64,000 nucleotides of DNA from a virus (Duplodnaviria > Caudoviricetes). Numbering within the stretch: the stretch's first letter is position 1; each line of letters begins with the position of its first letter. Location of the stretch: IMG/VR virus record IMGVR_UViG_2905444465_000001, positions 1-64,000 of that record. One strand, written 5' to 3'. The translations under genes and the position numbers were made by a program. The notes under the pieces were generated by a model. It worked only from the letters and a program-made list of their open reading frames with translations, made no database searches and was not told the DNA's origin. Below are positions 5,141-26,514 of the stretch, one piece after another.

Positions 5141-5455
5141 CTATATCATCTGAAAATGTCTCAAAGCATCCTCAATTGCCTTCTCCTTCTCAGCCGGGCA
5201 CTTTGGCTGCCTAGCATCTTCACTCTTCGGAAGATTGAAATTCTCCCTCATATCAAGTCCATGCTTTGCCTTTACCTGCGCAATATACAGACTTGATACC
5301 TTGTATCCGGTCTGTTCCTTCACATAGTCCTTAATCGCTTCGTATGTGGCTCCCTTCTTAAATCTGGACATATCCATATTTGCGAGAGACATTTCAACCT
5401 TTACTTTCTGAGAGTCGATTATACCCTTGGAAAGCAAGACAACCGTCTCAACATG
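5141..5455 (-). pseudogene. rlmD: Detached 3' end of 23S rRNA (uracil-5)-methyltransferase, with C-terminal extension
   Basis: Reading upstream of the listed ORF gives HVETVVLLSKG, the C-terminal motif of RlmD/RumA; the 5' part of the gene is not adjacent. Confidence 0.8.
5442..5452. repeat. att core ACCGTCTCAAC (left boundary of the phage-derived island)
   Basis: Identical 11-mer at 31132-31142; both encode VETV of RlmD on the minus strand. Confidence 0.8.
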
Positions 5456-5535
5456 GCTCGATAGGTCCGGATTGATGTCGGTTATCTGGAACCTATCCAG
5501 ACTAATATGGTTTGCACCAAAATATCTCCGTTTGT

Positions 5536-5595
5536 TTACGGAAACATATCAACAAATTCTGTAGAAAAAATATCTTGATACATTCTGCTATCCAT
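5536..5595 (-). CDS. Putative 19-aa peptide MDSRMYQDIFSTEFVDMFP
   Basis: ATG to TAA with GAGGT 12 nt upstream and a consensus promoter just upstream; ends in an RlmD-like VDMFP. It may be incidental. Confidence 0.3.
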   Translation of the reverse strand: MDSRMYQDIFSTEFVDMFP

Positions 5596-5655
5596 ATCAC
5601 AACCTGAACCTCGTTCGTCCACGGAAAAAGTTCAACTTTTTTATTCGTTTCTACT

Positions 5656-5683
5656 ATTATAGTGATTCAAACATAAAAGTCAA
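5656..5683 (-). promoter_or_regulatory. Near-consensus sigma-A promoter facing out of the island
   Basis: Minus strand TTGACT-N16-TATAAT. Confidence 0.6.
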
Positions 5684-5700
5684 ATTTTGCGAGGACCCGC

Positions 5701-5790
5701 CATCGTCTCAACCTTGTCCGTTCTTCCTACAAAAACAGGTCAACGGCTATTTTTAGCCCTAACTGATGGCCTTGCTTCCATGCACTCGAC
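5701..5790 (-). pseudogene. Degenerate rlmD fragment (fossil att-like sequence)
   Basis: Translates as SLPRSSAWKQGHQLGLKIAVDLF...RTDKVETM with a frame break, resembling RlmD SLARD...GY...AVDMFPRTxHVETV; contains CGTCTCAAC at 5704-5712. Confidence 0.55.
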
Positions 5791-5823
5791 CTTGGCAAGC
5801 TGAAAATTTTAATGGAGATGCTA

Positions 5824-6870
5824 CTACTTCTTCGCATTCTCTTCCAGTTCCAGCATGTATTTATCAAAGTCAGACATGAACAATCTGTCCTGAATAACAC
5901 GATACTTTTCAAATTCAGTCTCAGCTTTTGCCTTGGCAATCTCAGCAGTAATTTTGCCTGCATCCTGAAGGACCTCTCTGTCATCAGCCATCAGGAATAG
6001 ATCCAGTCGCTTTGACCAATCCTCCATCGTCATCGGGATATGACGCTCTGCTCGATCCTCTGCCAGATCCAAATAAGCCGAAACGATACGCTCTAATGAA
6101 CGCATTTCCTTTTCTGAAAGATAATTCTTTGCAACGCTCACATCACTTTTTACAATCTTGCCTTCCGGTGCTTCTGCCCACGTGGTCAGCCCCATATGTG
6201 GCTTATCAGCATCTGCTCGCTCATAAATCAACTCTGCTGCCGTATGTCCGTGAACTGCATAATGCATCTTGTTCTGCACCTTGGCAAAAAACTGCTTTGT
6301 TGTTTTGGCTGTGCGGTCGTAATCAAGAGCTGTAGCATAGATGTCCGTTATTTTCTGATAGAATCTACGCTCAGATAAACGGATCTCACGAATATGCTCA
6401 AGCAAACGATCAAAATATTCTGTTGTAAGCACTGATCCACCATTTTTTAGACGTTCGTCATCCATAACCCAGCCTTTGATGGTGTAGTCCTTGGCAATTT
6501 GATTGACCCATTTACGGAACTGCACCGCACGCTCAGAATTGACCTTGAATCCAACAGCAATGATCATTTGAAGATTATAATGTTTCGTATCACGAGTGAC
6601 CTGGCGTGAACCTTCGGTTTGAACTATCCGGAAATTCCGGATAGTTGCCTCTTCCTCAAGCTCTGAGTCGGAATAAATCTTCTTAATATGCTCATTGATT
6701 GTACGAACATCTACATCATATAGTGTGGCCATCATCTTCTGTGTCAGCCATATATTCTCATCTTCGTAGCGCATCTCAATACTGTCCTGCTGATCACCAA
6801 CAGAGGCAACATAGGTCAGATATTCCGCTGCGCTGGAACGGATGGTTATTTCATCTTTTTTCTTTTTCAA
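5824..6870 (-). CDS. rhuM: RhuM-family (virulence RhuM) DNA-binding protein
   Basis: WLTQKMMATLY, HYNLQMIIAVGFKVNSERAVQFRKW, IRLSERRFYQKITDIYA and KNYLSEKE motifs. Confidence 0.85.
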   Translation of the reverse strand: MKKKKDEITIRSSAAEYLTYVASVGDQQDSIEMRYEDENIWLTQKMMATLYDVDVRTINEHIKKIYSDSELEEEATIRNFRIVQTEGSRQVTRDTKHYNLQMIIAVGFKVNSERAVQFRKWVNQIAKDYTIKGWVMDDERLKNGGSVLTTEYFDRLLEHIREIRLSERRFYQKITDIYATALDYDRTAKTTKQFFAKVQNKMHYAVHGHTAAELIYERADADKPHMGLTTWAEAPEGKIVKSDVSVAKNYLSEKEMRSLERIVSAYLDLAEDRAERHIPMTMEDWSKRLDLFLMADDREVLQDAGKITAEIAKAKAETEFEKYRVIQDRLFMSDFDKYMLELEENAKK

Positions 6871-6884
6871 ATAGGATGCCTCCT

Positions 6885-7922
6885 TTATAAATCGAAATGC
6901 GTTTTTGCTATTGTATTTAGCTGTCCTGCTATTTCATCAAATGGTAAATTCAAATCCAGAGTCCTGACAGTAATCTGGTTTCCACTCATCTGATACACAT
7001 TATTCGGATATATCTCTTCATCAGTCTTGGCATACAAAAGCATTCCCGAAACCGTGTGGTCCTTCTCTCTCATTTCATATTCCTTGTTTTTCACATAAGT
7101 AAAAATCTGATAAAGATTGCCTGAATGAAGTGTATGCTTGTCAAACTGCACCTGTGTGCTGTGCTCATAGTACTTTGCGTCAATAATAAGAACTTTCTCA
7201 CCATTTTGGAGCATAATGTCACTTTGCATCACAGGCAACATAGAGTTTTCTTCATCGTCCAGTTGCCAAGGAATCTGTGATGCATTTGCGGTAATCTGAT
7301 TTTTAAACTCTCTCCTGTAATATTCCAGGATGAACTTCTCATACAATCGACACATTCGCTGCTCGTCTAAAAAGTCCATCAACTTGGTATGCCCATTCGA
7401 TTGTGTTTGCAATAGACCCTTTACTACCAGGTAGCATATTGAAATTAGCATACGATAAGTCTGGTTATTTCGATTGTACTGAACATTCCAATTTACCGTA
7501 TACAAATCAATAAAATCCACCTCGCTGAAATACACCATTAACTTTCTAAGATTTTTCTTGCGCTGTTTCGATATATTCGAACGAAGGAGAAGTTCAACTG
7601 TAGATTTGATGATCCGATTCATGATGCTGTTAACCGAAAACTCATCGTATGTACAGATTAGCTGTTTCCGTAACATTGACTGTGTCTTGATAGACTCTGC
7701 AATATCAATCTTTCCTCGCAGAGAAGAGAGCGTCTCCGTCTGCGGAATATATTCTTTGCCAAGTCCTCTCTTTAGCTGAATCGCGATACCTTTTTCTAAG
7801 ATAGCCGCCATCAGCTCGCCAGTATTATTAAATTGTTCTGTGGCTATATTCTTATAACCTTGCTCATTCAATACCTGAAATGCATAGGACAGCATATAAT
7901 AGATGTTTTGAATCGGTATCAC
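6885..7922 (-). CDS. mcrC: McrC subunit of a modification-dependent restriction endonuclease
   Basis: MIPIQNIYYMLSYA start, PD-(D/E)xK core IIDAKYY, NLYQIFTY; coupled to mcrB. Confidence 0.92.
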   Translation of the reverse strand: MIPIQNIYYMLSYAFQVLNEQGYKNIATEQFNNTGELMAAILEKGIAIQLKRGLGKEYIPQTETLSSLRGKIDIAESIKTQSMLRKQLICTYDEFSVNSIMNRIIKSTVELLLRSNISKQRKKNLRKLMVYFSEVDFIDLYTVNWNVQYNRNNQTYRMLISICYLVVKGLLQTQSNGHTKLMDFLDEQRMCRLYEKFILEYYRREFKNQITANASQIPWQLDDEENSMLPVMQSDIMLQNGEKVLIIDAKYYEHSTQVQFDKHTLHSGNLYQIFTYVKNKEYEMREKDHTVSGMLLYAKTDEEIYPNNVYQMSGNQITVRTLDLNLPFDEIAGQLNTIAKTHFDL

Positions 7923-10405
7923 TTAATCGTACTCCTTAGATTTTCGCTCCAATCTTTCACCTTCATAGGTTCATCAAACCAGTATTCTTTCAATAAAGGT
8001 ATCAGCTCATATTCCACAACACCATAAAGCCAACTATCGTCAATTGTATCAGGCTGTAAATTACAGAAGTAGCTGTGACCAATACAGAACCCTTCGCCCA
8101 GAGATTCATCGACGGAAATCTCTCTATTCAAACTCTCGACGCAACTGATCAGTTTGTTGAACTTCTCATTATCTAATGCCATGCGATACTCACGGAACCC
8201 CGGAGTCTCAAACCCCGGCTTGATATCAAAGAAAGCAAACCTTCTACGAAGTGCATAATCCAGCATAGCCAGGCTTCTGTCTGCAGTATTCATCATGCCA
8301 ATAATATAGACATTCTTCGGCACTGCAAACTTTTCATCCGAATACAGAAGCTGTAGCGCATTTCCTCGCTTATCATTTTCAATCAGCATAAACAGCTCGC
8401 CAAAGATCTTACTCAGATTGCCACGATTGATTTCATCTATGATAAAGAAATACTCATTATCACTATCTACCTCGGCCTTCTTGCAGAAATTGTAGAATGC
8501 CCCCTTCTTCAGTTCAAATCCTGTAGCAGATGGACGAAAGCCCATAATAAAATCTTCATAGGAATAACTCTGATGGAACTGTACCATCATGACACGCTCT
8601 ACATCTTTTACACCCATCATAGAATAGGCCAAGCGCTTAGCAACATATGTTTTTCCTACTCCTGGTGCACCCTGCAAGATAATATTTTTCTTATTTCTAA
8701 GCAAACCAACTAATCTGGTATAATTATCTTCAGACATGTACACATCATCCAGGAAATTTTCTGCCGTGTACTCCGGATAGGCAATTTCCTGCTCATCATC
8801 TACAATATCGTCTTCCTCAAACAAAGCCTTAATTTCTTGTACGAAGTCCCTATATGGCGTAATATTGGTCAGAGCCTTCTGAGGGGACTGATGATTAATT
8901 GTCCAATCGCCCTTGTTCGTCCAATTTACTTTTCTAACATTGGAATATTCATCTGTGCGATCTGCATCATATTCATAATCAGACTCAACAATTCCTTTGC
9001 CAAGAATTCCATTATTGCCTTTTTTTACGTATACCACGTCGCCAATCTTAATATCATGTACAAACTGCCAAGTAGCATGAGCTGAATTCTTATAGGAACT
9101 GCTATCACCGTATTCTTTCTTCATCTGCTGTTTCATTTCATCCTTAGAGCTGAATACTCCAAGATCTCCAATCTCACCCCAGCCCAGTAGCATATAACCG
9201 TTCTTATAACACTCTTCCCATTTATCAGCGTTTTGTCCCGGAGCATAAATCCAGTAATGAACTGTATCGACATCACTATCTGCAAGAGCATCGCTATCAT
9301 TCGTTTTCTTACTCTTTGCATCAGAGACACCTTTTTTGAAAATATCAGATGCCATCTCCGCTGTTAATTCCACTGATTTGCCTGCTTCAGTAAGTGTCCA
9401 CACACCTCTTACGCTTTTATCAATATATCCCGCTCCAACGAGATAGTTTCTGGCGAAAGCAACTTCATTTTCAAATTTGTTAACCTTCGTTTTCCCTCTG
9501 GTTTCGCTTACTATCTCATCCGACAAATGCTCGTTTTCTATAATTTTCTTTCTCGCTTCTACCGGTGTCGCAGATCCTCCTAAATCGCGTAACGCCTGTA
9601 GCAATGGCATAAACCACTTAAGAAATTCCGCTTTCGAAGTCTTTTTATCTTTTTCAGCAGCCTTTTCCTGATTGACTTGCTCAGAGATCACCCAGGCCGT
9701 AAAGGATAAATCAGGAAAGTTCTTGTATTCATATTCACCTGCATCCAGAGCTTTCTTACACAAATCTTTTATTTCAAGATAATCTGCAGCATACGGCACT
9801 TTCTTAAGCTTCTTCTCGGCTGCGACAACAAACTCGCCAGGCATATTCTGGGCATCTGCTATAAACCAGCGATTTCTGGAATCCAAGTTGATAAATGTAT
9901 AAGGACGAATCCAATAAAGGCCCATCGTAATATTCCAGCGAATGCAAAGCTGATCATGCACCTTGTCATAAGCCTCGGAGAATTTCTGACGGTTATCTTC
10001 TGTGTCATTGTCAGCCAATGCAAGAGCTACCTCAAACAAACTCCACAAGTTATCAATATCATTTGCTTTTCTATCATCCTTAAATCCATAAAACGTAGCC
10101 TTCAGATTATTAAGAACCGGGATTCCATCAAAATTGCTCGGCACAGTTGCAGCAATTCCAAACTCTGACGCTATCCCGTTAAGAATAGCAATTCTATTAG
10201 CATTTGTTATTCCCTTGTTAAATGTGCCAAAGATGGTAAACGGATCAATATCAACAATCGCATCACCACTTTCAAGTTTCGGAACGCTAATTCCAACAGT
10301 GTCATACACCGCATATATTTTCTGAATAAGAGCCTTTCTATCAGTTTTGAAAGGAAGAAGCTTAGTAGCAAACTCTGTATAAAAATCTATCCAATCGTAT
10401 TGCAT
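7919..10405 (-). CDS. mcrB: McrB-family AAA+ GTPase with long multi-domain N-terminus (unknown domain, Mrr_N-like wHTH, EVE/PUA-like)
   Basis: GAPGVGKT, IIDEINRGN and MNTADRS in the C-terminal third; about 550 aa of extra N-terminal domains. Confidence 0.9.
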   Translation of the reverse strand: MQYDWIDFYTEFATKLLPFKTDRKALIQKIYAVYDTVGISVPKLESGDAIVDIDPFTIFGTFNKGITNANRIAILNGIASEFGIAATVPSNFDGIPVLNNLKATFYGFKDDRKANDIDNLWSLFEVALALADNDTEDNRQKFSEAYDKVHDQLCIRWNITMGLYWIRPYTFINLDSRNRWFIADAQNMPGEFVVAAEKKLKKVPYAADYLEIKDLCKKALDAGEYEYKNFPDLSFTAWVISEQVNQEKAAEKDKKTSKAEFLKWFMPLLQALRDLGGSATPVEARKKIIENEHLSDEIVSETRGKTKVNKFENEVAFARNYLVGAGYIDKSVRGVWTLTEAGKSVELTAEMASDIFKKGVSDAKSKKTNDSDALADSDVDTVHYWIYAPGQNADKWEECYKNGYMLLGWGEIGDLGVFSSKDEMKQQMKKEYGDSSSYKNSAHATWQFVHDIKIGDVVYVKKGNNGILGKGIVESDYEYDADRTDEYSNVRKVNWTNKGDWTINHQSPQKALTNITPYRDFVQEIKALFEEDDIVDDEQEIAYPEYTAENFLDDVYMSEDNYTRLVGLLRNKKNIILQGAPGVGKTYVAKRLAYSMMGVKDVERVMMVQFHQSYSYEDFIMGFRPSATGFELKKGAFYNFCKKAEVDSDNEYFFIIDEINRGNLSKIFGELFMLIENDKRGNALQLLYSDEKFAVPKNVYIIGMMNTADRSLAMLDYALRRRFAFFDIKPGFETPGFREYRMALDNEKFNKLISCVESLNREISVDESLGEGFCIGHSYFCNLQPDTIDDSWLYGVVEYELIPLLKEYWFDEPMKVKDWSENLRSTIK

Positions 10406-10654
10406 TTACATCACACCTCCATTACTTTTTCCTCCATACGAAACCAGCACTTCTGCCACCATACTCAGTTCCGTTTCAGATATGAATTGATAGAGTTCCT
10501 CTTCTTTCTATGTCTCTATATTATCTATCCAAAGCTCACACTGGCAAATTGCCGTTCTGATTGAGAAATCATAATTATACTGGTAAACAGGAATTATGAA
10601 ACGCGTCCTAAAGCCTTCCATTTATTCTATTAAACCATATTCTGAATCCGTCAT
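10406..10654 (-). pseudogene. Internally deleted DUF262 (GmrSD-like) relic
   Basis: One frame reads MTDSEYGLIE*MEGFRTRFIIPVYQYNYDF...YGGKSNGGVM*; FIIPVYQxNY is the DUF262 N-terminal motif; two internal stops; the final stop abuts the mcrB ATG. Confidence 0.6.
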
Positions 10655-10673
10655 TTCACATCAATCCATCCTC

Positions 10674-13229
10674 TTATTGAAGATCGGGATCGCTCCCCAG
10701 AGGAGTAATTCCGTTTTCTTTAAGCATTTCATTTATTTCATAAATTGAATTCTCTGCACAGGCTCCCATTACGCATTGATAAACGTATCCTTCGCCCTTC
10801 AATGAATTTAATTTAAAGTCCGTTTTACCAAGAAACATTTCAGCCTCCGGCAGTGGCAGCTTTAGTCCTACGCATAACGCCAGAACTGTCTGTACAGATG
10901 TTGGATACTCTTCATCATTTCTCAAACGCTGGATGGTCTTTTCTCCTACAAGCGAACGGTCTGCTAACTGTTTATTTGAGAGCTTTCTTTCTTTTTGTAA
11001 AGCTACCAGCGTTTCGGCAAAGGAACCGGGATATCTTCGCAGGGCTTCTGACCGGCGCTTGGCGTTCTGAATCTGGTCGAGTAGCGTTCGGTTATGCGCG
11101 TTTAGTTCAAAGGAATACTCAACCTGATTTTCAACAGGAGCGGCGTTCCGCATGAACTGCGTATAATACTTTGCCCCTTGATATTTCGATTGATAGCTAT
11201 ACCCCTTTGAGAAAACAACACAGCACTCATCCATGTGCGTGAGTGCATATTCTGACAGTGTCGCATTTCCGGCCTGATCCCTCGCTATATATTTCTCATT
11301 GTTAAGAACGAGGTGACGATCTGTAAAAACGAACTGGCCGCTGTCAATCAGTTTCTTAAACTCGCGGTCGAAACAATAAGCTTTAAACAAATCGGCATAA
11401 GGAATGGTGAATGTCTGATTCCTATCCAAGGCACCTGCTTCAAATGAATATCCACGAACATACTGACCATCCACAAACGGATATGCACCTTCGGCTTTGG
11501 AATACCCCAGATCCATCAAACGAACCTTTGCGGCCTGTCTTGACACATCGAACAGCTCCGCCAGTTCATCAATGACATTCTCATAGGCTGTAATGCTCGC
11601 ATCATCAACCCCTCCATAAGTTGCAAGAAGCTGATTTGCCTTCAAGCACGTCGTTTTTGCGGGCATCAAGATTTTCTGAGCAACGCCTTTGGCTTGCCAC
11701 TCCATCCAGTCTACAGCCTTCCATTTATTTGAATCAGTGTTGTTTGCAGCTATTTGGCACTGGATAGCCCTTCCAAGATTATCGTTAGCACCTATCATTT
11801 TCATCAACACATGATATGGCTGATGACGGTGCCAGTGAAAACACTCATGTGCCAGCGTAGTACGCTTTGTTCCTACAGATCTCTCATAGGAAACACGCGG
11901 ATCAAGGTATACAGTTCCGCGTTTAGCATTGCGAATTGTAATCTTCCGGTGCTTATCGAGAACATTACCGTTATCAAATATGATTGTCCCAAAATAAGTA
12001 AGATCATCCGATAGAGGTACATCCTCGATAACATGTAACTTCATATCGCTGGCTATCGTCTCGATTGGAACTCTCATCGGTTTATCCAACGCATCCGGAC
12101 AATACCTTGTCAGGAATTTTTCAGTCTCGTCTTCAAACTGGTCGCGAGAGATAATAGGTACAAGCTCTCCGGACAGGTGGTCATTATCAGATTCCTCTTG
12201 CGGCTCACAGTTACCAACAGACATGATTCGGAACCCGCTCATATCAATGCCAAGAGTGACCTGGCAATGAATCTTAAGCCAGCGCTCATTAAAATATCCC
12301 TTGTGAGAAGCGGACGGCATTTCGACATCGCATGATGCAATTACATCGAATGCAATCATGCCATCTTCTGGCTGTTCAATATGGATAACATTCTCGATTT
12401 CCATATCAACGACCGACAGCCTTTTCGTGTCACCAGAACGTTCCTCTTGAATATAAGCTATGGCCGCATCCCGTATATCGTCATAACGAGAGTGGTCGAT
12501 CAGTTTCTGCAGTGGGCTTTCATCCTGTGCTTCATAGTAATCCAGCCTGATGTCATTGAGTTCTTTACGAATTTCGCGCCAATTAGGCATGCACTTATCC
12601 ATGTGAGCGATAAATGTAGCGTCATGCTTTCTTGTGATTAAATGTGTAAGCTCATGTAAAATAATATAGTCAAGGCAGGCATACGGTTTCTGGGCGAGCT
12701 GCAGGTTGAACCACAGCTTCTTTTTACCCGTACTGCAGGCCCCCCATTTTGTAACCATATATTTTGTTTGCCAAGAATCACATTTAAGTCCTGTCTGCGC
12801 CTCCCACTTAGGCAGACGCTTTTCTATTTCTTCCTTCAGAATCTTTCGATATTCTTCTTTCACATAAGCATCTCGCTGTTTCACGGTACTCTTGGCACTC
12901 ATGGATAGAACAATATTTTGATTCTGAATCTCGAAACTGTTCTTTTGATTGTCAGGCTTAAAGATAAGAAAGTACTGCTTTCCCCATATATACATCGTCT
13001 CACCTGAAACATACTGCCGCTTCGATGCTCTTGGCTGATCCTGAAATTGCGCGATAGCCTTCTTGATAAAGCCCAGCTGAGTTCTGGCATAAGCCTCTAT
13101 AGCTTTATCGTCCACGGATAAAGGCGCAGAAATTACCACATGTCCATCCGGCGGCTTCACCTGAAGGTGCATATTTTTTATATTCTTTTTTTGCACATCA
13201 ATCGGGATGCCGGAAATGACAATGCGCAT
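10674..13229 (-). CDS. Fusion protein: YgjP/DUF45 (M48-like) metallopeptidase + ImmA/IrrE-like metallopeptidase + XRE HTH
   Basis: HELTH at about aa 192-196 in a YgjP-like N-terminus (KWGACS...FNLQL); HECFH at about aa 461-465 followed by EWQA...ILMP (IrrE/ImmA pattern); C-terminal HTH (LSNKQLADRSLVGEKTIQRL). Confidence 0.8.
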   Translation of the reverse strand: MRIVISGIPIDVQKKNIKNMHLQVKPPDGHVVISAPLSVDDKAIEAYARTQLGFIKKAIAQFQDQPRASKRQYVSGETMYIWGKQYFLIFKPDNQKNSFEIQNQNIVLSMSAKSTVKQRDAYVKEEYRKILKEEIEKRLPKWEAQTGLKCDSWQTKYMVTKWGACSTGKKKLWFNLQLAQKPYACLDYIILHELTHLITRKHDATFIAHMDKCMPNWREIRKELNDIRLDYYEAQDESPLQKLIDHSRYDDIRDAAIAYIQEERSGDTKRLSVVDMEIENVIHIEQPEDGMIAFDVIASCDVEMPSASHKGYFNERWLKIHCQVTLGIDMSGFRIMSVGNCEPQEESDNDHLSGELVPIISRDQFEDETEKFLTRYCPDALDKPMRVPIETIASDMKLHVIEDVPLSDDLTYFGTIIFDNGNVLDKHRKITIRNAKRGTVYLDPRVSYERSVGTKRTTLAHECFHWHRHQPYHVLMKMIGANDNLGRAIQCQIAANNTDSNKWKAVDWMEWQAKGVAQKILMPAKTTCLKANQLLATYGGVDDASITAYENVIDELAELFDVSRQAAKVRLMDLGYSKAEGAYPFVDGQYVRGYSFEAGALDRNQTFTIPYADLFKAYCFDREFKKLIDSGQFVFTDRHLVLNNEKYIARDQAGNATLSEYALTHMDECCVVFSKGYSYQSKYQGAKYYTQFMRNAAPVENQVEYSFELNAHNRTLLDQIQNAKRRSEALRRYPGSFAETLVALQKERKLSNKQLADRSLVGEKTIQRLRNDEEYPTSVQTVLALCVGLKLPLPEAEMFLGKTDFKLNSLKGEGYVYQCVMGACAENSIYEINEMLKENGITPLGSDPDLQ

Positions 13230-16200
13230 TAAAACTCCTCCTGCTTTTCAATGATCTTATAGATGCGCTCCACTTCAGAGTCATCACCCAAAATCTCATA
13301 GAGTGCTTTCTTTATTCTTCGTATTACTACCTGATTATCTCTGAACCCAAACAGTGCCTGCTTTTTCACAGCTTTGTGAATTCTGATAGCAAGTTCCTCA
13401 TCTTCTCCAGTGTTATCATAAATAGCCATGAGGGCTTTACTCTTGCGAATACTTTCCGAATATTTGTCGTTATCCTCTGGGCAATCAACATCCTTGGCCA
13501 GCTTTATATATTTCTCAAGCATCTCAGCGTAGTCAAGAACTCCCTGCTTACGCTCTTCAATGAGCTTATCAAGGATTTCTGACATCTTTGCATAATAGCG
13601 TGGATTGACTGTGACCTTTTCGATAACCTTCTTACGGATGTTATTCTCGATTGCCTCTGCTGCACCTTCCTTGTGGCCGCTATCACCTTCACCAGTAAGT
13701 GTCTCACCCTGCTTTGCTACGAAATCCAATAGGGTAAGATCATCAAAATCGCCAATCTTCTCGGCATCTGCGGCCGTAATGTAGTTATCGATCATCTTTC
13801 TCATATCAGGTTCATATGCCTTCAAATCAAGAAAGTCTCCACTGGCCGTACCGATAGTTTTCTTCAACTCGATGTAGAAAGTGACCTTCTTATCATATTC
13901 ATTCAATTTGCCAGATGAGATGTCATCAATCAGATATGGTTTTGCTTCCGCGAAGGCTCTGATAAGACTGCTCACAAGACGATAGAGTTTTTCTCTTAGG
14001 CGTGCATAAATCTCGTCGCTCTCCTCAGACTGTCCAGAAACGCCACAGAAATAATGAATGTACTGGATCTCTCCACAAGGTTCCTCGACGCCTTCACAGA
14101 GTTCCTCGACAGCATCATACACTTCCTCAAAATAGGATACCGTAGCATCATGGCGATCTTTGACAAGTCCTTTTACATCCTCCGGATCATATCCTTCAAA
14201 AGCGCCAGAAGTATAGTCCTTCATTGCAGTCTGGAGCTGTCCAAACAACTGCTTGTAATCCACGATATAGCCAAAGTCCTTAGTATCATCATCCAGACGA
14301 TTAACCCGGCAGATCGCCTGGAAAAGGCCGTGGTCTTGCATTCTTTTGTCAATATAGAGATAGGTGCATGGAGGCGCATCAAATCCAGTGAGAAGCTTGT
14401 CCACGACGATGAGGAGCTTCATATTCGCAGGCTCCTCTACGAATTTGCGCTTTGCTTCCTTTTCAAATTCCTCCACCTTGGCTTGAACCGATCCCGCATT
14501 CGGAAGATCAGATGAATCGAGTCCCAGCATCTTCAGATACGTCTCGTATTTAAGGAAGGTTTCGGTATCATCCTCGTCGCTGACGGTATCAGTTCGCAGT
14601 TCTCCCTTGTTCGGTGTATAGGAAGATATGATGGCGCACTTTTTAAAGCCCATCTGCTGGAAAATTTCATAATACTTACAGGCCGTAGGAATACCATCGG
14701 CTACAAGAATCGCATTGCCGTTTCCATCCATCAGACGCGGCTTCATATTAAAGTCCTGAATGATATCCCATGCCACCTTTTCAAGACGCGAGCGGGAGCT
14801 ATACACCTTCTGCATCGTGCCCCACTTCTCCTTGAGCTTTGCCTTTGCACGAGAGGAAAGGCCTCTGGTCTTTACGTCGAACCACTGGTCCACTCGATCC
14901 TGTGAAGACAAATCCTGTGGAACATCGCGGTATTCATAACGAAGATCCAGAACAACACCGTCGGCCACGCCTTCGTTATACTTGTAAGCGTGGATATATG
15001 TACCAAAAACCTCAATGCTGATCTTCTTATCCCTTTTCAGCAGTGGAGTGCCCGTAAAGCCTATAAATACAGCATTCGGCATGATGGTCTTCATTGCCGT
15101 ATGAAGCTTACCAGACTGTGTTCTGTGGCATTCGTCAACAAACACCACAAGATTTCCTTTTGCCTCGAAATTGGCAGGGAGGGACGCTTTCAGCTCTTCT
15201 ATGTACTTGTCATAGTCATTCTCTGTCGCTTCACCGCCACGACGTCCAAACTTATGCACCAGCGAGCAAATCAACGAATCATCATATACATTCAGGCGAT
15301 TCAGCAAATCCTTACCGCTCTTGGTTCGAGCAATATTCTCATCCACGCCAGTGAATGTTTTTTCTATCTGCTCATCAAGTTCATCTCGGTCTGTCACGAT
15401 AAGGACACGGGCATTAAGCTCTGCCCAATGTGTCAAAATCCACTTTGCAAGCCATACCATTGTCAGCGTTTTTCCGGAGCCCTGTGTATGCCAAAGGATA
15501 CCACCCAACGGTTTATCCGGTTCTCTGTTCGGATTGTGAAGCTCCGTTCTCAGATTAGTAAGCCTCTGCTGGGTACGCTTGATACCAAAATACTGATTGT
15601 ACCGGCATACTTTTTTGATGCCTTTATCAAAGACAACAAAATTCATGATAAGGTCAATAAAACGTTCCTTATCGAACATGGCATATATCTGCTTCAGGAG
15701 TTTATTCTCTATGCCTTCGCAGGTTTTACTGATACGGACATCGACCGGATCACGCTCTTCTTCATGTTCTTTGAATCCGTCATCCTTCCACTCCATATAA
15801 AACTTCTCTCCGGTCAGGAGCGTGCCATAGCGCAGGCCTTCTGATTCGTTTCCAGCTACGCAAAATTGCATTGTAGAAAAGAATCCCTGTATGAATGAAT
15901 TTTTCTGGTTTGTCAGATTCTGGCGGATGCCTTCTGAAACAGAGATACTGCTTCGCTTCAGCTCGATTACAGCAACAGCAACACCGTTCAGATAAACAAC
16001 AAGATCTGGTCTCTTTTCTGACTGCTCAACGACCGTCACTTCCTCAGCAATAGCAAAGTCATTGTTCAAAGGGTTTTCCTCATCAACAAGTTGCACAGTC
16101 ACCGAAGACTTTTCAGGACTCTCGCTCACCGGAATACCATACTTTAAACGAGAATATACAGTTTTGTTGGCGTCATATAACCCACGTGAGAGATTACCCG

Positions 16201-16408
16201 CTTCCTGTTGAAGCTTCGTAATGGCTCCGTCGATCAGCTTGTCGGCATAGCCCTTCAGTCGAAGGTACTGACGCAGGCGATCTTCTTTGATGTTTTTATT
16301 TTGATAATCTGACAGGTTACCAATATACTGGTAGCCCAAGATCTCCGGATCTTTAAAAAAGCGGATCACTCTTTCCTGTGTTTTGATTTCGGCATCGCCA
16401 ATACTCAT
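13229..16408 (-). CDS. hsdR: Type I restriction endonuclease subunit R
   Basis: RPDLVVYLNGVAVAVIELK nuclease motif, HTQGSGKT, DECHR, GFTGTP, LLTGFDAP, QAICRVNR. Confidence 0.96.
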   Translation of the reverse strand: MSIGDAEIKTQERVIRFFKDPEILGYQYIGNLSDYQNKNIKEDRLRQYLRLKGYADKLIDGAITKLQQEAGNLSRGLYDANKTVYSRLKYGIPVSESPEKSSVTVQLVDEENPLNNDFAIAEEVTVVEQSEKRPDLVVYLNGVAVAVIELKRSSISVSEGIRQNLTNQKNSFIQGFFSTMQFCVAGNESEGLRYGTLLTGEKFYMEWKDDGFKEHEEERDPVDVRISKTCEGIENKLLKQIYAMFDKERFIDLIMNFVVFDKGIKKVCRYNQYFGIKRTQQRLTNLRTELHNPNREPDKPLGGILWHTQGSGKTLTMVWLAKWILTHWAELNARVLIVTDRDELDEQIEKTFTGVDENIARTKSGKDLLNRLNVYDDSLICSLVHKFGRRGGEATENDYDKYIEELKASLPANFEAKGNLVVFVDECHRTQSGKLHTAMKTIMPNAVFIGFTGTPLLKRDKKISIEVFGTYIHAYKYNEGVADGVVLDLRYEYRDVPQDLSSQDRVDQWFDVKTRGLSSRAKAKLKEKWGTMQKVYSSRSRLEKVAWDIIQDFNMKPRLMDGNGNAILVADGIPTACKYYEIFQQMGFKKCAIISSYTPNKGELRTDTVSDEDDTETFLKYETYLKMLGLDSSDLPNAGSVQAKVEEFEKEAKRKFVEEPANMKLLIVVDKLLTGFDAPPCTYLYIDKRMQDHGLFQAICRVNRLDDDTKDFGYIVDYKQLFGQLQTAMKDYTSGAFEGYDPEDVKGLVKDRHDATVSYFEEVYDAVEELCEGVEEPCGEIQYIHYFCGVSGQSEESDEIYARLREKLYRLVSSLIRAFAEAKPYLIDDISSGKLNEYDKKVTFYIELKKTIGTASGDFLDLKAYEPDMRKMIDNYITAADAEKIGDFDDLTLLDFVAKQGETLTGEGDSGHKEGAAEAIENNIRKKVIEKVTVNPRYYAKMSEILDKLIEERKQGVLDYAEMLEKYIKLAKDVDCPEDNDKYSESIRKSKALMAIYDNTGEDEELAIRIHKAVKKQALFGFRDNQVVIRRIKKALYEILGDDSEVERIYKIIEKQEEF

Positions 16409-16423
16409 CTGACAGGCACCTCC

Positions 16424-17665
16424 TTACACTAATCTGACCTTGCCGGTCAGCAATTCATCCATCATACCTTGTTTTATTTTCTGATATTTCGATAGTTTTT
16501 CTTCGAGTTTATAGATATCCAAATCCATATCGAAAAGGATACCAGTAATAGCTTCTTGTTCTTCTGTAGTAGGCGGAACATACAAATCAAACTTCACAAG
16601 ATCCTTCTGATATAAGTGATTAATCGTTGATCCTGCCGACAACTGCTGAAGAAAATCTTTAAATACTGAAGATTCCAGCACATAAAACATGAAGTGCGCT
16701 GTATACGCATTAGTTATAGGCTTTACAACAAACACACCGCTGTTTAATGTTGCTGGCCTATCTAAATCTGATATATACGCAACTTTACCTATGGTACCAT
16801 CTTTTGTAAGAAGAAGATCGCCATTTGAGACTTGAATGTTCGGATCTTGCATGTATCTGCCATAATTCACATAATGACAGCCATTCCAATTGATACGCCC
16901 ATCTTTAAAATCCGTTCCTGTAATCAAATAAGCATAACCTTCATCCAAATATTCAGCTGTAGTTAATCCCTGCCAACCTATACGTGCTTTAAGCCTTGAG
17001 TTTTTTGCCAAATTAATCTTAACCCAATCTTCTGAGAAACCCTCCAGTCGTTTCTTTCCAGTTACAAGCATTTGCAATGTTCCTTGACGGATATCCTTCT
17101 TCTTCTGGATGAGTTTTTGTAAGTTTGAAATTGCTTCATCCATATCTGATAAAACAGACACTATTTCATTTTGTTCATCAAGATTTTCAGGATAGATGGC
17201 GCTAAGATTACTTACTATACCCACACTCAATCCATCCATTATCCCACCAACAGCCAGCCTTACTGTCTGATCGCTCAAATAATGATATTGATCAGAGAAA
17301 AGCTGAAGTAGATAGTTCGGATTAATCTTCTTTTCATCAATACGAAGCCTTATCAAGTGAGAATCCATTATTCCACACTGTATTGAATCTGGAACAATAG
17401 CACATTTTCCTATTGTTCCCATAGTGCTCATTACAAAATCACCCGGAATAATTTCACATGAGTTCAGGCGATTAAAGTGCTCTCTCGAAAGATACCTGTC
17501 ACCTAAGCTAAAATCATGATTGTATACATTTTCCTGTCCATATACCCGATATTGTCCATCGGACAAAAGTATTTCTTTTTTTAACTGACTTCCAAACGGG
17601 CCGATTTTGATTCCATTAGGTTTCAGTACATCCAATATCGGTTTTTCAACCCATCCCTTTACCAT
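16424..17665 (-). CDS. hsdS: Type I RM specificity subunit S
   Basis: Two TRD/conserved-region repeats (EQNEIVSVL...LQKLIQKK; EQEAITGIL...KQGMMDELLTGKVR). Confidence 0.95.
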   Translation of the reverse strand: MVKGWVEKPILDVLKPNGIKIGPFGSQLKKEILLSDGQYRVYGQENVYNHDFSLGDRYLSREHFNRLNSCEIIPGDFVMSTMGTIGKCAIVPDSIQCGIMDSHLIRLRIDEKKINPNYLLQLFSDQYHYLSDQTVRLAVGGIMDGLSVGIVSNLSAIYPENLDEQNEIVSVLSDMDEAISNLQKLIQKKKDIRQGTLQMLVTGKKRLEGFSEDWVKINLAKNSRLKARIGWQGLTTAEYLDEGYAYLITGTDFKDGRINWNGCHYVNYGRYMQDPNIQVSNGDLLLTKDGTIGKVAYISDLDRPATLNSGVFVVKPITNAYTAHFMFYVLESSVFKDFLQQLSAGSTINHLYQKDLVKFDLYVPPTTEEQEAITGILFDMDLDIYKLEEKLSKYQKIKQGMMDELLTGKVRLV

Positions 17666-20337
17666 TTGAATCCCATCCTTTCCAGATGAGACTTTACCTT
17701 TGCCTCATATTCAGTAATGACTTTGTCAAGCTCCGGAAGGGTATTCTCATATCGCTCAGCAAGTTCGATAATCCTACTCGTCAAGCGATGGGAAATCGCA
17801 ATATATAAATCACTGATCCCAGAGAAAATACTATCAAACCACTTCTTGTTCACAAGCAAATCTAATATTTCATTATCTGTAAAGCTTTCATATCTTGCCC
17901 GGCACTTTTCATCCAGAGCCTTGTTCAGATCTTTAACAACCTTATTGTAATCAGATACCTTGCCGCAAAGTTCTAAAGCTGCCTTCAACTGGTTTACATC
18001 ATCCTGCAGGCTATCAGGTACACATTCTTCTGTACGAATAATACGTAACCGATATTCAATAGAGCTCTTTGTAATTTTTCCATTTTCGTTGACTGCGCTC
18101 TTGCAAAGCGGATGCCCCACAAGGTATGCTTCCATTCGTTTCTTCGTATTTACAAGATGAAGATCAGCGCGGATCACTTCCAGTTCTATAGTTTCCTCTG
18201 TTTCAATCGTGCTTGTCAATTCAATTATTTTTGTTTCGATATCCTTGGCTTTAACTTTTCCATTCTCAGCCACATCAGCAAGAGCAGATTCTTCGTCCGC
18301 ACTCTCAATCAGAGTAGAAAGCTGAGATTCCGTCTCCGCAACAATGTTCTCGGCTTCTTCTATTGCATTCTTTTCCTCTCGGAAAAAGGCATCTATTACA
18401 ATAGATTTCGGGATCAAACGACCTTCCCATCCGATGACCTTCATTTCACCCTTATTCTTTCCCTGCGTAATTTCTTCCTCGATATTGTCTGTCGCTCTGG
18501 CGTTGATGTAGCCATCCGATTCGCTTATGATAAGTGACACATCATCGTTCATGACCTCATTCCAATAGGCCAGCAACACCTGATATACATCGTATTTGTC
18601 AATCAGTGTCAGGTGTTCAAATTCGGCAATGATATCTTCAGCAAGACTTACAATCAGCTCTCTTGCAACCACTTCTTCATTAAGGGCAGAAAGGACCGGA
18701 TATTCTTTTTCCTTCCATGCAGCAAATGCCTCGTCGAGTTTCTCACCATACTCCGAGAATTCAGTATTTTTATATATCGTTTGTCGAATACTTTCGTGCT
18801 CAACATTCAAGCTGTAGTATTTTTCGCTAATAGCTGACAGCAGCTCTGATTTCAGCGAAGGAAATGCATTCCAGTATTTAGATAGACCGTCGATGTCAAT
18901 CGCAGGAATGCCGCCATGAATATGAGCATAAATATCCTGAATATCCTCCGGATCTGTGGAATCAATATAACGGGTAATGTTCAGGTTATACTCATTCTTC
19001 TTTTCAATTTCATCATTAGGTACGAAACGCGCATACTTAGGATCTGTAGTAATCTGCTCATTAAAGGTAGTAATGATTCTGTAGATATCGCGTTCTCTCA
19101 AACGATTCTTATTGCCATCCTTAACATACCCACGGCTGGCATCAATCATAAAGATGCCCTGTCGGTTTGCAGCACCTTCTTTGTCAATCACGAGTACACA
19201 TGCAGCTATTCCAGTGCCATAAAACAAGTTTGCCGGAAGGCTGATGATACCCTTAATCCAATGTTTCTTTATAATAGTCTCTCTGATGGTAGCCTCTGCA
19301 TTTCCACGAAAGAGGACCCCATGAGGCAAAATAACTGCAGCCTTGCCATTTGACTTCAAAGTTTTAAGGATATGCATAAGCCAAGCATAGTCCCCGTTCT
19401 TCTCCGGAGGCATATCCCCATAGCCCTCAAACCGACCATATTCTTTACCGGCAATTCCATCCCGCCAGTTTTTCATGGAAAAAGGCGGATTGGCCACTAT
19501 GTAATCAAAACGTTCAAGTACGGAGGTATCTGATTTATCCATGTACTGCGGATTCGAGAATGTATTACCACTCTTGATGGTAATTTCAGCCTTACGGTGC
19601 AAAACAGCATTCATCTTAGCAAGACCAGCTGTTGTGCTTTCTTTCTCCTGACCATAACCCATGATTGGAAATGGTGCTGCATCGATAGCCCGGATTAACA
19701 AACTGCCGCTACCACAGGCCGGATCACATACCGTAGCGCTACTATTAGCGCAACGGTTAATTCCTACAACATTAGCAAGAATTCTGGATACCTCCGCAGG
19801 CGTATAAAATTGTCCCTTACTTTTTCCGCTTTCCGTAGCGAATTTACGCATCAAGAACTCGTATGCATCACCAATGATATCATCGCCTTCTGCCTTGTTT
19901 CGAGAGAAGTCGAGTTCCGGACGCTGAAAGATGGATATGAGATCGGTCAACTTATCAACCATTTCCTTACCATTTCCCAATTTCTTCTCATCATTGAAAT
20001 GAGCAATATCAATAACGCCCTTCAAATCAGTATTCTCGTCAGCAAGACGGGCTATGATTTTATCCATACCCTCGCCGATATTCTTCTTTCCTTTCAGAGC
20101 AATAAAGTCGTCAAAGGAGCAGCCTGTCCGCTTCTCCGGATCGGGATCTTTATCATGCGCCTTATCAAAGACCTTAATATCTTCATAGGCTCCTTTATTC
20201 TTAAATTTATCAGTAACATACTTCATGAACAAGAGTGTCAGGATATAGTCTTTATATTCTGAGGAATCCATGCCTCCACGAAGTTTGTCACAGCTTGCCC
20301 AAAGGGAGCTGTATAGCTCTGTTTTCTTTACTGCCAT
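17659..20337 (-). CDS. hsdM: Type I RM N6-adenine methyltransferase subunit M, long form (892 aa)
   Basis: GQFYTP, DPACGSGSLL, NPPF, AVILPHGVLFRG; about 400-aa helical C-terminal extension. Confidence 0.95.
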   Translation of the reverse strand: MAVKKTELYSSLWASCDKLRGGMDSSEYKDYILTLLFMKYVTDKFKNKGAYEDIKVFDKAHDKDPDPEKRTGCSFDDFIALKGKKNIGEGMDKIIARLADENTDLKGVIDIAHFNDEKKLGNGKEMVDKLTDLISIFQRPELDFSRNKAEGDDIIGDAYEFLMRKFATESGKSKGQFYTPAEVSRILANVVGINRCANSSATVCDPACGSGSLLIRAIDAAPFPIMGYGQEKESTTAGLAKMNAVLHRKAEITIKSGNTFSNPQYMDKSDTSVLERFDYIVANPPFSMKNWRDGIAGKEYGRFEGYGDMPPEKNGDYAWLMHILKTLKSNGKAAVILPHGVLFRGNAEATIRETIIKKHWIKGIISLPANLFYGTGIAACVLVIDKEGAANRQGIFMIDASRGYVKDGNKNRLRERDIYRIITTFNEQITTDPKYARFVPNDEIEKKNEYNLNITRYIDSTDPEDIQDIYAHIHGGIPAIDIDGLSKYWNAFPSLKSELLSAISEKYYSLNVEHESIRQTIYKNTEFSEYGEKLDEAFAAWKEKEYPVLSALNEEVVARELIVSLAEDIIAEFEHLTLIDKYDVYQVLLAYWNEVMNDDVSLIISESDGYINARATDNIEEEITQGKNKGEMKVIGWEGRLIPKSIVIDAFFREEKNAIEEAENIVAETESQLSTLIESADEESALADVAENGKVKAKDIETKIIELTSTIETEETIELEVIRADLHLVNTKKRMEAYLVGHPLCKSAVNENGKITKSSIEYRLRIIRTEECVPDSLQDDVNQLKAALELCGKVSDYNKVVKDLNKALDEKCRARYESFTDNEILDLLVNKKWFDSIFSGISDLYIAISHRLTSRIIELAERYENTLPELDKVITEYEAKVKSHLERMGFKW

Positions 20338-20373
20338 TGCCAGAATCTCCTTGTCATTTTTTTGCTGTATCGA

Positions 20374-20568
20374 TTACTCGATAGCACTTTTTCCACTTTT
20401 AACCCACACATCAAGTTCAGAACATTTAAATTTCCACTGTTTCCCAATTTTGTGTGCCGGTATTCCTTTATCATTACGTATCCATCCTCGGAGCGTCACT
20501 GGCTTGACACCTAGGTATTCAGCAGCTTCTTCAATGTTTATCCATTTATCATTCAACTTATCTTCCAT
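20374..20568 (-). CDS. Small excisionase-type helix-turn-helix protein heading the RM operon
   Basis: INIEEAAEYLGVKPVTLRGWI...IPAHKIGKQWKF (HTH_17-like). Confidence 0.85.
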   Translation of the reverse strand: MEDKLNDKWINIEEAAEYLGVKPVTLRGWIRNDKGIPAHKIGKQWKFKCSELDVWVKSGKSAIE

Positions 20569-21114
20569 GTTCCACCTCTCGAAGTTACGTATAGATACAA
20601 TTACCCAATAATATTATAGTCATTTTCGACAGCAAAAACAAGTAGTTTCTTGTTATTTGCTTATATTTGTTACTAGTTTTCTTAAAAAGTTTACAGCTTG
20701 TTCATATTTATTTTTTGATAGCCGGACATGTATGTGTCCGGTCTTTTCTTTTGCAAATCTAACTTTTAATCCCTATCTGTTCCATAAATCAACTCTTTAT
20801 CCCCTAAAAAACGGACATAGGCATGTCTGAGGTTTTTATTTTGAAATCTGGCATATTTAAGATAGTTATTAAAAACTCGTCTCGGACAAGACGTTAACCA
20901 GTCTAACTTGTTCCTCAACTCACCGCCTTCGTGGCCACGTGGTGTGTTCGTAGTTGATGAACAAGAGAACACTATCAATAGAGTGCCAGCTTACGAACGG
21001 CTGGTCACCGGAAAGAAGCGGAGTTATCCGCATGAGGTGACCATCTTATGAAAAACACTGGCAGCCATATCGGTTATCTCCGCTTCGGTTCAAATGCCGA
21101 AAGGAGAAAATCAA

Positions 21115-21633
21115 ATGGCAATCAAAGTAAATCAGAGTAAACAGTATCGTATCTACATCAAGGAATCTAAAAGCTGGGTGGATGTCAACAAAGAGTTCTA
21201 CACGGACTACTATCGTGACATCAATTCCTATCGCAAACGTCAGCAGGAGCATGGCCGTTGTGTCTGCCCTGCAAGTAAACGTTATTTATGCGACATGGAC
21301 TGTATGACCTGTCCGTATGCCAAGGCTGGCGACCAGCTTTCTCTCGATAGCACCGTAAGCGACGGTGAAGGAAATGAAAAAAGCTGGCTTGATGACATGC
21401 CGGATGAATCTGTAGCTATCGTAGAAGTAATGGAGGACGCAGAACTTCTTCGTGCCCTCTATGCAAAGCTGAATGAGCTGGACCCAGAAGGTCGCCTTAT
21501 CTGCCAGCTTATCATGGACGGAAAATCGGAACGTGACTGTGGCAAGGAAATGGGACTCTCCCGTAATACCTTTGTATACCGCAGGGACAAGCTGTTCCAG
21601 AAGCTTCGTTCCGAGCTTAAAGACTACATCTAA
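21115..21633 (+). CDS. Phage sigma-70 region 4-like regulator
   Basis: C-terminal HTH (GKSERDCGKEMGLSRNTFVYRRDK), Cys-rich centre; start follows an AAGGAG RBS. Confidence 0.75.
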   Translation: MAIKVNQSKQYRIYIKESKSWVDVNKEFYTDYYRDINSYRKRQQEHGRCVCPASKRYLCDMDCMTCPYAKAGDQLSLDSTVSDGEGNEKSWLDDMPDESVAIVEVMEDAELLRALYAKLNELDPEGRLICQLIMDGKSERDCGKEMGLSRNTFVYRRDKLFQKLRSELKDYI

Positions 21634-21642
21634 TATGAATGG

Positions 21643-21668
21643 TCGTCCTCTGATTCTTCAGGGGACGA
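21643..21668 (+). terminator. Intrinsic terminator
   Basis: TCGTCCTCTGA-TTCT-TCAGGGGACGA followed by a T-run. Confidence 0.65.
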
Positions 21669-21776
21669 TTTTTCTTTTCAAAAAATTTTTATAACTTTTC
21701 GGCCAAACAGCCATCTCACCTCCATTGAGTAGTGTAAGGCGAAACAAAACGACCTACAGAAAGCGAGGTGAACACC

Positions 21777-25762: not shown

Positions 25763-26092
25763 TTACTTATTTGAATTTATAATTCCTTCGATGTCACGAC
25801 CACCGTAAAATATTCGTGCTACTGTAACTGCCCTTTCCTCGTCATCAACCAGATAATACACGATAAAGTTGTCAACCGGAAGCTGATGCATTTTCATCGA
25901 ATGCCAAGGTTCCCAGTCAACTAACGCATGGCGAGCTGGCATGAAATCCAGTGAACGAACTTCTTTTCGGATACGGCCCAACTGAGCGGTAGCAGTTTCC
26001 GGAACGAGGAGTTCATTCGCAATATACAAATAAATTTCACGTAAATCATCAAGTGCATCTACAGAATAGCCGACCTTATAGCTATCCATCAT
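25763..26092 (-). CDS. RelE/ParE-family toxin
   Basis: YSVDALDDLREIYLYIA...YIVYY..D....VTVARIFYGGRD pattern; ATGA overlap with the antitoxin. Confidence 0.85.
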   Translation of the reverse strand: MMDSYKVGYSVDALDDLREIYLYIANELLVPETATAQLGRIRKEVRSLDFMPARHALVDWEPWHSMKMHQLPVDNFIVYYLVDDEERAVTVARIFYGGRDIEGIINSNK

Positions 26093-26394: not shown

Positions 26395-26514
26395 AGTATC
26401 GCCTCCTTTTTCTTTATTATATTCGCTTTTGCTTGCAATTGCAAGTATTTGCATAGATTATTTTATGACAAAACTTTGAATTTTATACGACCTTTACGGC
26501 AGAAAGGAATATTT

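Follow-up and report, generated by a model that had tools for sequence, protein, structure and literature searches.

The window analysed here is a stretch of 64,000 nucleotides, positions 1 to 64,000 of the 89.7-kb IMG/VR virus record IMGVR_UViG_2905444465_000001 (Duplodnaviria; Caudoviricetes), and our subject is a single gene within it, which encodes an 851-residue protein (P0001) that joins a YgjP/DUF45 zincin domain to a phage regulator carrying a second protease motif and a helix-turn-helix (HTH) domain of the XRE family. The open reading frame (ORF) contains no internal stop and lies in a minus-strand operon with the order HTH_17, hsdM, hsdS, hsdR, fusion ORF, a 268-nucleotide gap, a McrB-like gene (Mrr_N and AAA_5), McrC and RhuM (Table 1). 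On that strand the hsdR/fusion junction reads GGAGGAGTTTTAATGCGC: base 13229 is both the last A of the hsdR TAA and the A of the fusion ATG, giving a TAATG overlap, and a GGAGGAG ribosome site lies 5 nucleotides upstream of the ATG, within the end of hsdR. Motif placement by script puts H192-E193-x-x-H196 and H202 (HExxHx5H) in the first half of the protein, and H461-E462-C-F-H465, E510 within WMEWQA and I520-L-M-P523 in the second. A first-pass annotation, made from the sequence alone, had noticed the 851-residue frame, the base shared with the hsdR stop, HELTH at residue 192, HECFH at residue 461, EWQA..ILMP, the XRE HTH and the neighbouring operon genes, and all of these hold; the strand, which it had left out, is minus.

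Table 1. Features of the fusion gene and its operon in the window, in the direction of transcription
Feature	Position	Strand	Remarks
Palindrome 1, CAGACA-N6-TGTCCG	20812–20829		T-run follows on the minus strand; has one mismatch here but is exact in L013 and L096
Palindrome 2, CCGGACA-N6-TGTCCGG	20722–20741		invariant CGGACA/TGTCC in 10/10 loci
Promoter-like TTGTTT-17-TATAAT	20613–20641	-	45 nt upstream of the HTH_17 ATG; kept in ten loci; consensus match only
64-residue HTH_17 gene	20374–20568	-	first gene of the operon; conserved module partner in 'type B' loci
hsdM	17659–20337	-	
hsdS	16424–17665	-	with hsdM spans 16424–20337
hsdR	13229–16408	-	stop overlaps the fusion ATG
Fusion ORF, 851 residues (P0001)	10674–13229	-	full-length conservation in relatives
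Residues 1–243: complete YgjP/DUF45 zincin domain (HELTHx5H) with native C-terminal tail DESPLQ(K/R)L	12501–13229	-	Pfam PF01863
Residues 244–350: N-terminal module domain, two helices and a four-stranded curved sheet	12180–12500	-	cystatin/NTF2/VirB8-like fold
Residues 351–582: M78 (IrrE/CapP-type) zinc peptidase	11484–12179	-	
Residues 583–732: alpha/beta domain, unassigned fold	11034–11483	-	conserved Y661-A662, E668-C669 and F673; model pLDDT 90.5
Residues 733–851 plus stop: XRE HTH (recognition helix KTIQRLRN) and two C-terminal helices	10674–11033	-	about the size of a whole CapH/DdrO/ImmR repressor
Variable downstream cargo	5824–10405	-	McrB-like 7919–10405, McrC 6885–7922, RhuM 5824–6870

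Residues 1–243 can be assigned from their sequence to the YgjP/DUF45 zincins that usually end type I restriction-modification (RM) cassettes, translationally coupled to hsdR. Pfam PF01863 (YgjP-like) aligns with residues 20–225 at an E-value of 6e-54 and 183.5 bits, the cut-off being 26, over profile positions 3–205 of 207. The zincin residues H192-E-L-T-H196 and H202 are present in 11 of 13 fusions, and the two without them are not adjacent to hsdR. This part of the protein is 37–43% identical to Gram-negative and cyanobacterial examples, and 70–74% identical to unfused Bacillota YgjP that terminates at the tail DESPLQRL; unfused copies also follow hsdR, on an E. coli plasmid and in Bacillota. 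Because the fusion retains this tail and its next residues align with the stand-alone form of the downstream regulator from residue 4 onward, the alignments identify the join as a clean end-to-start fusion of two complete genes. An internal start that would make the regulator separately was considered and rejected, as there is no methionine near residues 233–245.

Residues 244–851, which we call the module, correspond by profile to a complete copy of a regulator of about 620 residues, PHROG 4031, which is among the core genes of the Heliusvirales/phi-m46.1-like temperate phages in Bacillota. The profile is matched end to end (residues 241–842 against positions 8–624 of 626, E = 1.1e-135). Two groups of phages carry stand-alone modules of 620–640 residues: the phi-SsUD.1/phi-SC181-type prophages of Streptococcus suis, whose integration site is rum/rlmD, and the NatCom Heliusvirales of the gut. 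Of 80 IMG/VR loci, about 65 have the module 1–1.5 kb from the genes for a DUF2800 nuclease and an Enc34-type SSB, early genes that also flank the operon in this window. An exhaustive profile-free search returned few full-length clusters at 50% identity, as against well over a hundred stand-alone clusters of 600–650 residues at about 30% identity. With a whole PHROG 4031 protein in the second half, and its stand-alone forms filling prophages, the earlier proposal that an RM-associated YgjP had been joined to the phage's ImmA/IrrE-type protease-HTH regulator is upheld.

The M78 domain of the module has the IrrE/CapP fold and an HExxH motif with a downstream glutamate ligand. Pfam Peptidase_M78 (PF06114) matches residues 448–572 at 21.0 bits, just below the cut-off of 22; the phi-SC181 relative scores 32.5 against the same profile, many other relatives have a precomputed PF06114 match, and PADLOC capP matches residues 433–576 (E = 1.6e-8). 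All 68 sequences compared have H461, E462, H465, H469, E510, P523, R570 and G575 unchanged. Three cysteines are also conserved, namely C463 (85%), C491 (82%, 56 of the 68 sequences), which sits between HExxH and E510, and C669 (99%). The HTH is a five-helix, lambda-repressor-like DNA-binding domain of the XRE/Cro-C1 kind, with a Pfam HTH_3 match at residues 746–794 (23.2 bits, cut-off 23). Taken with the two helices behind it, this part of the module is CapH/DdrO-like and so similar to the repressors on which M78 proteases act. Structure searches used two AlphaFold models, of residues 232–600 (predicted local distance difference test, pLDDT, 90) and 561–851 (pLDDT 90.5). For the confidently folded region 583–732, Foldseek gave no match at E ≤ 0.001, HTH matches took up the VIA-wide rows, and nothing in the ESM Atlas exceeded 0.79. 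A sequence search of P0001 against PDB chains gave no match, and an NCBIfam search of the fusion protein yielded nothing useful.

The fusion is not an assembly artefact: 33 species genomes keep its frame intact, as do IMG/VR contigs and hundreds of metagenome contigs, and the gene is under purifying selection. A protein search gave 415 relatives; among the best 120, the majority have 845–866 residues and are 62–96% identical. One form at 62% identity (P0110) accounts for 866 indexed blocks of the assembly collection and is present on hundreds of contigs. The species scan, with one genome per species, yielded 33 intact fusion ORFs of 847–863 residues, every one directly after a type I hsdR with its start coupled or overlapping. 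Their hosts span Lachnospiraceae, Oscillospiraceae, Megasphaera, Erysipelotrichales (an isolate), Mogibacterium and the actinobacterium Olegusella, and include Blautia-type Ruminococcus, Waltera, Merdimonas, Acetatifactor, Agathobaculum, Angelakisella and Caproiciproducens. Within each of five segments of the fusion, pairwise dN/dS (the ratio of nonsynonymous to synonymous substitution rates, omega) is 0.02–0.2, indicating purifying selection. A stop codon lost, or a misassembly, in this record alone was the outcome that the first-pass annotation had named as fatal to its reading. We found nothing in favour of it, though a few relatives (L108, L134 and L122) carry premature stops or deletions, and with the frame kept so widely we give it practically no credence.

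How the fusion came about can be read from the arrangement of related loci. Many share a layout in which SSB, DUF2800 and orf179 lie on one strand, with SSB furthest from the centre, and HTH_17, a cargo and the module run divergently from them. The cargo position between HTH_17 and the module is a slot that receives RM cassettes. The module directly follows HTH_17 in L092, with no cargo between, and other RM or McrB-like cargo stands between the two in L010, L089, L079 and L056, that of L010 consisting of a methyltransferase, a 1,026-residue protein and a restriction endonuclease. In the Heliusvirales phage PV036457.1, hsdM, hsdS, hsdR, ygjP (250 residues) and the module (528 residues) are separate overlapping genes. 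As a type I cassette ending in ygjP there directly precedes the module, the loss of one stop codon gives the fusion, and this gene order points to the adjacency of two self-sufficient neighbours as its most likely origin. One prophage, L011 (6680–9902), carries a small HTH_3 gene and a 266-residue M78 gene immediately upstream of a 633-residue module, behind hsdMSR and a GGACT gene, so that two sets of protease and HTH follow one another. In S. suis prophages (L002, Streptococcus phage phi-SC181, 21–8878), the slot directly upstream of the stand-alone module holds the antibiotic-resistance genes optrA and cat, flanked by IS1216; gut phages have their restriction genes in this slot.

Sequence identities show that hsdR and the fusion gene move together as a single block. 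Compared with L016, the block 16507–10569 is 94.7% identical and its flanks about 74%; compared at the protein level with L003, HTH_17 is 100%, RhuM 95% and DUF2800 90% identical, as against 72% for HsdR and 62% for the fusion. The slot behind the fusion holds McrBC here, a helicase and GmrSD in L003, and DUF4357, helicases, NERD and an ADP-ribosylglycohydrolase in L095/96. The McrB-like/McrC/RhuM block of the window is 96–100% identical in protein sequence in L129 and L145, where hsdR and the fusion are just 72% and 58% identical to those of the window and thus a different RM-fusion allele. By this comparison, the defence genes behind the fusion are being shuffled.

Several observations bear on whether the two fused halves form one machine. 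Two diverged fusions of 46–47% identity, P0124 (L094) and P0127 (L093), are not adjacent to hsdR; their YgjP part is truncated at the N terminus and has FELLK and CELMN in place of HExxH, and their M78 site is intact. One of the two adjoins a gene resembling a rolling-circle Rep. Reciprocally, six species (L136–L140 and L142, for example Acetatifactor muris DSM 23669 and a Blautia sp.) carry forms of 581–628 residues after hsdR that end right after the M78 domain and so keep YgjP, the N-domain, M78 and both HExxH motifs and lack the middle domain and the HTH. Omega in these HTH-less forms is about 0.08 for YgjP, and 0.2–0.4 for the N-domain and M78, compared with about 0.05 in full-length forms. 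YgjP thus loses its histidines away from hsdR and M78 relaxes without the HTH, a pattern of substitutions that favours a dependence of YgjP on RM and of M78 largely on the HTH. Decay of each half independently of the other likewise favours, as far as these sequences go, fusion by adjacency over a concerted double protease. Elsewhere the module stands beside cargo other than RM genes, beside other types of RM or beside no cargo at all, and unfused YgjP, 70–91% identical, serves sister cassettes. Taken together, this suggests that the two fused parts work separately.

A candidate for what the module might bind emerged from an alignment of the 300 nucleotides upstream of HTH_17 from ten loci, in which a CGGACA/TGTCC palindrome is invariant. 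The palindrome pair lies at the same positions in L003, L013, L016, L017, L096, L092, L089, L010 and L079, and follows the module stop in about 40 IMG/VR loci. Where module and early genes are co-stranded, copy 1 lies 20–45 nucleotides after the module stop, with a T-run, and copy 2 another 100–130 nucleotides on, beside a GGGCAA-N17-TAnnAT element. Across 1.23 Mb of viral loci, 56 of 59 sites of the form GGACA-N4-7-TGTCC fall within 41 kb of module/HTH_17 flanks, a density of 1.35 per kb as against 0.0025 per kb elsewhere and a more than 500-fold enrichment. A generic repeat search in two intergenic regions and a strict pattern search of the window gave little on their own; the signal emerged only from the comparison of loci.

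The palindrome varies with the recognition helix of the module. The CGGACA type accompanies the helix K/R-T-I-Q-R-M/L-R-N, whereas lineage-specific variants at the same spot pair KTYDRIKN with GGACTTC.GAAGTCC, RMIQDYRN with two copies of GGAAGT-N3-ACTTCC, KTLRSYET with GGAAATT.AATTTCC and KTYERIRD with CGACAT..ATGTCG. Both copies change in concert, and therefore a shared trans-acting factor is indicated, for which the adjacent XRE domain is, on this covariation, the obvious candidate. In this window the pair heads the restriction operon, 150–260 nucleotides upstream of where HTH_17 begins. The control of the operon that the first-pass annotation had envisaged thus gains some support from helix-tracking palindromes upstream of HTH_17-hsdMSR, although the integrated double-protease sensor through which it was to act does not.

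A full-length match to the Rfam family RF02960 (DUF2800 RNA) lies on the plus strand at 20908–21068, upstream of the orf179-DUF2800-SSB operon. Its score is sub-threshold (25.7 bits against 60.2, E 0.33) and eight related loci gave no match at gathering level, so we do not claim this RNA here.

The module can be placed among known regulators, and the kind of system is not undescribed, as had been thought possible: protease-repressor switches are known from ImmA/ImmR, IrrE/DdrO and CapP/CapH. CapP/CapH is a regulator pair associated with CBASS and DISARM (Lau et al. 2022, 10.1101/2022.04.27.489752), and the module resembles it in being linked to defence operons. In CapP the switch cysteine C114 caps the zinc (10.64898/2026.05.16.725639), and C491 of the module, like C114, sits between HExxH and the third ligand, a likeness of position only. 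Unlike that pair, the module has protease and HTH in one chain with the HTH C-terminal, adds an N-terminal cystatin/NTF2-like domain, and is a phage core gene rather than a divergently transcribed pair, here fused to YgjP as well. Moreover, the C-terminal GAF domain of CapP forms a groove for single-stranded DNA (ssDNA), whereas the module has no recognised GAF domain and carries the alpha/beta domain of residues 583–732 instead, for which the fold-search lists were filled by the HTH. There is no separate, divergent capH upstream of the defence operon: the fusion gene lies inside it, and no small XRE gene occurs in the operon.

With ImmA/ImmR (ICEBs1, phi105) and IrrE(PprI)/DdrO (Deinococcus), the module has in common that it sits where a temperate element is controlled, but those are two separate proteins and this is one chain; ImmA has about 170 residues and is encoded in an immR-immA-int operon, from which the module differs. 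As the two-gene arrangement is absent, the module is not a member of CapP/CapH or ImmA/ImmR in the strict sense. What is new relative to known M78 and XRE switches is the single chain, the C-terminal HTH, the two extra domains, the position as a phage core gene at a cargo hotspot and, here, the YgjP part; newly described are the in-frame fusion, its spread, the reciprocal decay and the link between palindrome and helix 3. Stand-alone PHROG 4031 proteins, annotated as 'XRE family regulator' or hypothetical, agree with it in their domains and in the early genes beside them, but start at the module's own methionine and have no YgjP part. The module gene is not mentioned in the Heliusvirales paper (PMC11283538), the phage-ICE tandem paper (PMC13651849) or a review of RM (PMC12707154).

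Stand-alone YgjP/DUF45 proteins, annotated as 'M48' or 'SprT family', belong to the same Pfam family as the first half of the fusion and occupy the same place after hsdR, and in the E. coli plasmid NZ_CP148442.1 the start overlaps the hsdR stop as it does here; the fusion differs in its 608 further in-frame residues. The RptR-RMS-DarTG-M48 island of enteropathogenic E. coli (PMC12255303) has such a stand-alone YgjP/DUF45 protein after hsdR. We found no function for RM-linked YgjP in the passages of that paper retrieved by term searches or in the RM review (PMC12707154). RptR, the regulator of the same island, was considered as a relative of the 64-residue HTH_17 protein and rejected, as the paper describes it as a bZIP-like dimer that binds TAGCTA (PMC12255303).

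With the architecture, origin and spread of the fusion established by these genomes, the best overall explanation, which we hold to be likely, if not by a wide measure, is that two self-sufficient units were fused in frame by adjacency and that YgjP rides on the polypeptide of a phage protease-XRE regulator. The XRE part, probably dimeric through its last helices, would bind the paired palindromes CGGACA-N4-6-TGTCCG, and the bound protein would control its own HTH_17-hsdMSR-fusion operon, the divergent early operon or both. Once a signal of damage or infection, for example ssDNA, had activated it, the CapP/IrrE-like protease would, in cis or within the dimer, remove or inactivate the XRE part and so alter expression, and the YgjP part would retain its RM-linked role, merely carried on the same chain. 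We infer the DNA binding from the comparison of loci; the activation of the protease and the cleavage of the XRE part are proposed by analogy with CapP, IrrE and ImmA. As for the two substrates put forward in the first-pass annotation, the protein's own C-terminal XRE part is the better candidate, and the 64-residue HTH protein is a poor one because, being of the HTH_17/excisionase type, it has neither the XRE fold nor the C-terminal dimerisation domain of ImmA/IrrE/CapP substrates.

Some points weigh against this explanation. The M78 regulators known so far cleave a separate repressor, which sits uneasily with self-cleavage. The palindromes lie about 90–190 nucleotides upstream of the predicted -35 of the promoter at 20641–20613, which is not the classic occluding position; their association with helix 3 is confounded by shared ancestry, and copy 1 is also shaped like an intrinsic terminator hairpin, so another factor or an RNA structure could explain why copy 1 is conserved. 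The ordinary HTH_3 and M78 pair that adjoins the module in L011 raises the possibility that lysogeny is mainly switched by something other than the module. Finally, the retention of hsdR by all the intact fusions and the movement of the two as a block also fit a real functional coupling.

Such a coupling is the core of the alternative that comes closest to the first-pass proposal, an integrated sensor in which both proteases act on one target, for example in a damage-activated degradation of HsdR (restriction alleviation) or by coupling restriction activity to operon expression. The constant position directly behind hsdR, with starts coupled or overlapping, is what such a sensor would lead one to expect, as are the co-divergence of hsdR and fusion and their transfer as one block between different backbones, the strong purifying selection on both halves and the retention of both HExxH motifs in the HTH-less forms behind hsdR; the degradation of HsdR via ClpXP provides a precedent for proteolytic restriction alleviation (PMC12707154). 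Nevertheless, the halves decay reciprocally and independently, the module also lives with non-RM cargo, other RM types or none, ygjP and module are also found adjacent and unfused, and sister cassettes are served by a separate YgjP, for which reasons we consider an integrated sensor, or a dedicated restriction-alleviation device, unlikely. A more specific working idea, a Rosetta-stone reading that we hold with rather less confidence still, is that a CapP-like damage sensor and a Wss1/SprT-like YgjP share a target, either DNA-stalled HsdR or their own repressor part, so that, upon DNA damage or infection, type I restriction would be either relieved or boosted and the prophage/defence-island operon would be switched as well; if true, it would give the RM-linked DUF45 family its first function.

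The two remaining alternatives concern the module alone. It could be a non-proteolytic, ligand-sensing transcription factor whose M78-like domain is a sensor and cleaves nothing, as in M. tuberculosis PrpR, a reading in keeping with an HTH in the same chain and with C463, C491 and C669, which could bind a metal or a cluster; yet HExxH and the third ligand E510 remain invariant in all 68 sequences across about 25–30% identity, and CapP and PprI, which match best, are active proteases; this makes the reading improbable. HTH-M78 proteins are also antitoxins in RosmerTA-type systems, and a module of the toxin-antitoxin or abortive-infection kind (COG2856-XRE, RosmerTA-like), with a toxin under the control of the HTH-peptidase protein, would suit the location of the gene among defence genes. 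Here, however, no adjacent partner is conserved: the downstream genes vary (McrBC, helicase and GmrSD, DUF4357, TIR or none), and what stays constant around the module is phage replication genes together with the palindrome pair. In addition, the HTH stands C-terminal to the peptidase, the reverse of its N-terminal position in HTH-M78 antitoxins; we regard this reading as very improbable.

The module represents an unstudied, single-chain version of the ImmA-ImmR, IrrE-DdrO and CapP-CapH switches that is very common in the prophages of human-gut Bacillota, and it borders a hotspot for the exchange of restriction and other defence genes, a place taken in S. suis by antibiotic-resistance genes. 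If it binds the palindromes, it is the likely control point for the expression of these defence islands. The YgjP fusion, in turn, offers a natural handle on the long-ignored question of the role of the DUF45 gene behind hsdR.

Further observations concern the rest of the window. A promoter-like site, TTGCCA-16-GATAAT, lies at 10520–10547 on the minus strand, inside the gap that separates the fusion gene from the mcrB-like gene, and the McrBC-RhuM cargo may therefore have a promoter of its own, judging from this motif. No terminator-like site was seen after the fusion gene on its strand, and in a promoter and terminator scan of 5300–21700 sites were no more numerous than in shuffled sequence. 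The McrB-like protein has 828 residues, with Mrr_N at 263–345, a match to the PADLOC candidate family PDC-S02 at 384–498 and AAA_5, and its N-terminal reader arrangement is unusual among McrBC systems. On the plus strand, the region 24497–27447 holds a terminase large-subunit ORF of just 421 residues with a partial ATPase match, and a 332-residue ORF that matches only the zinc-ribbon part of a serine recombinase; from their sequences, the two would fit a prophage that has lost its structural genes.

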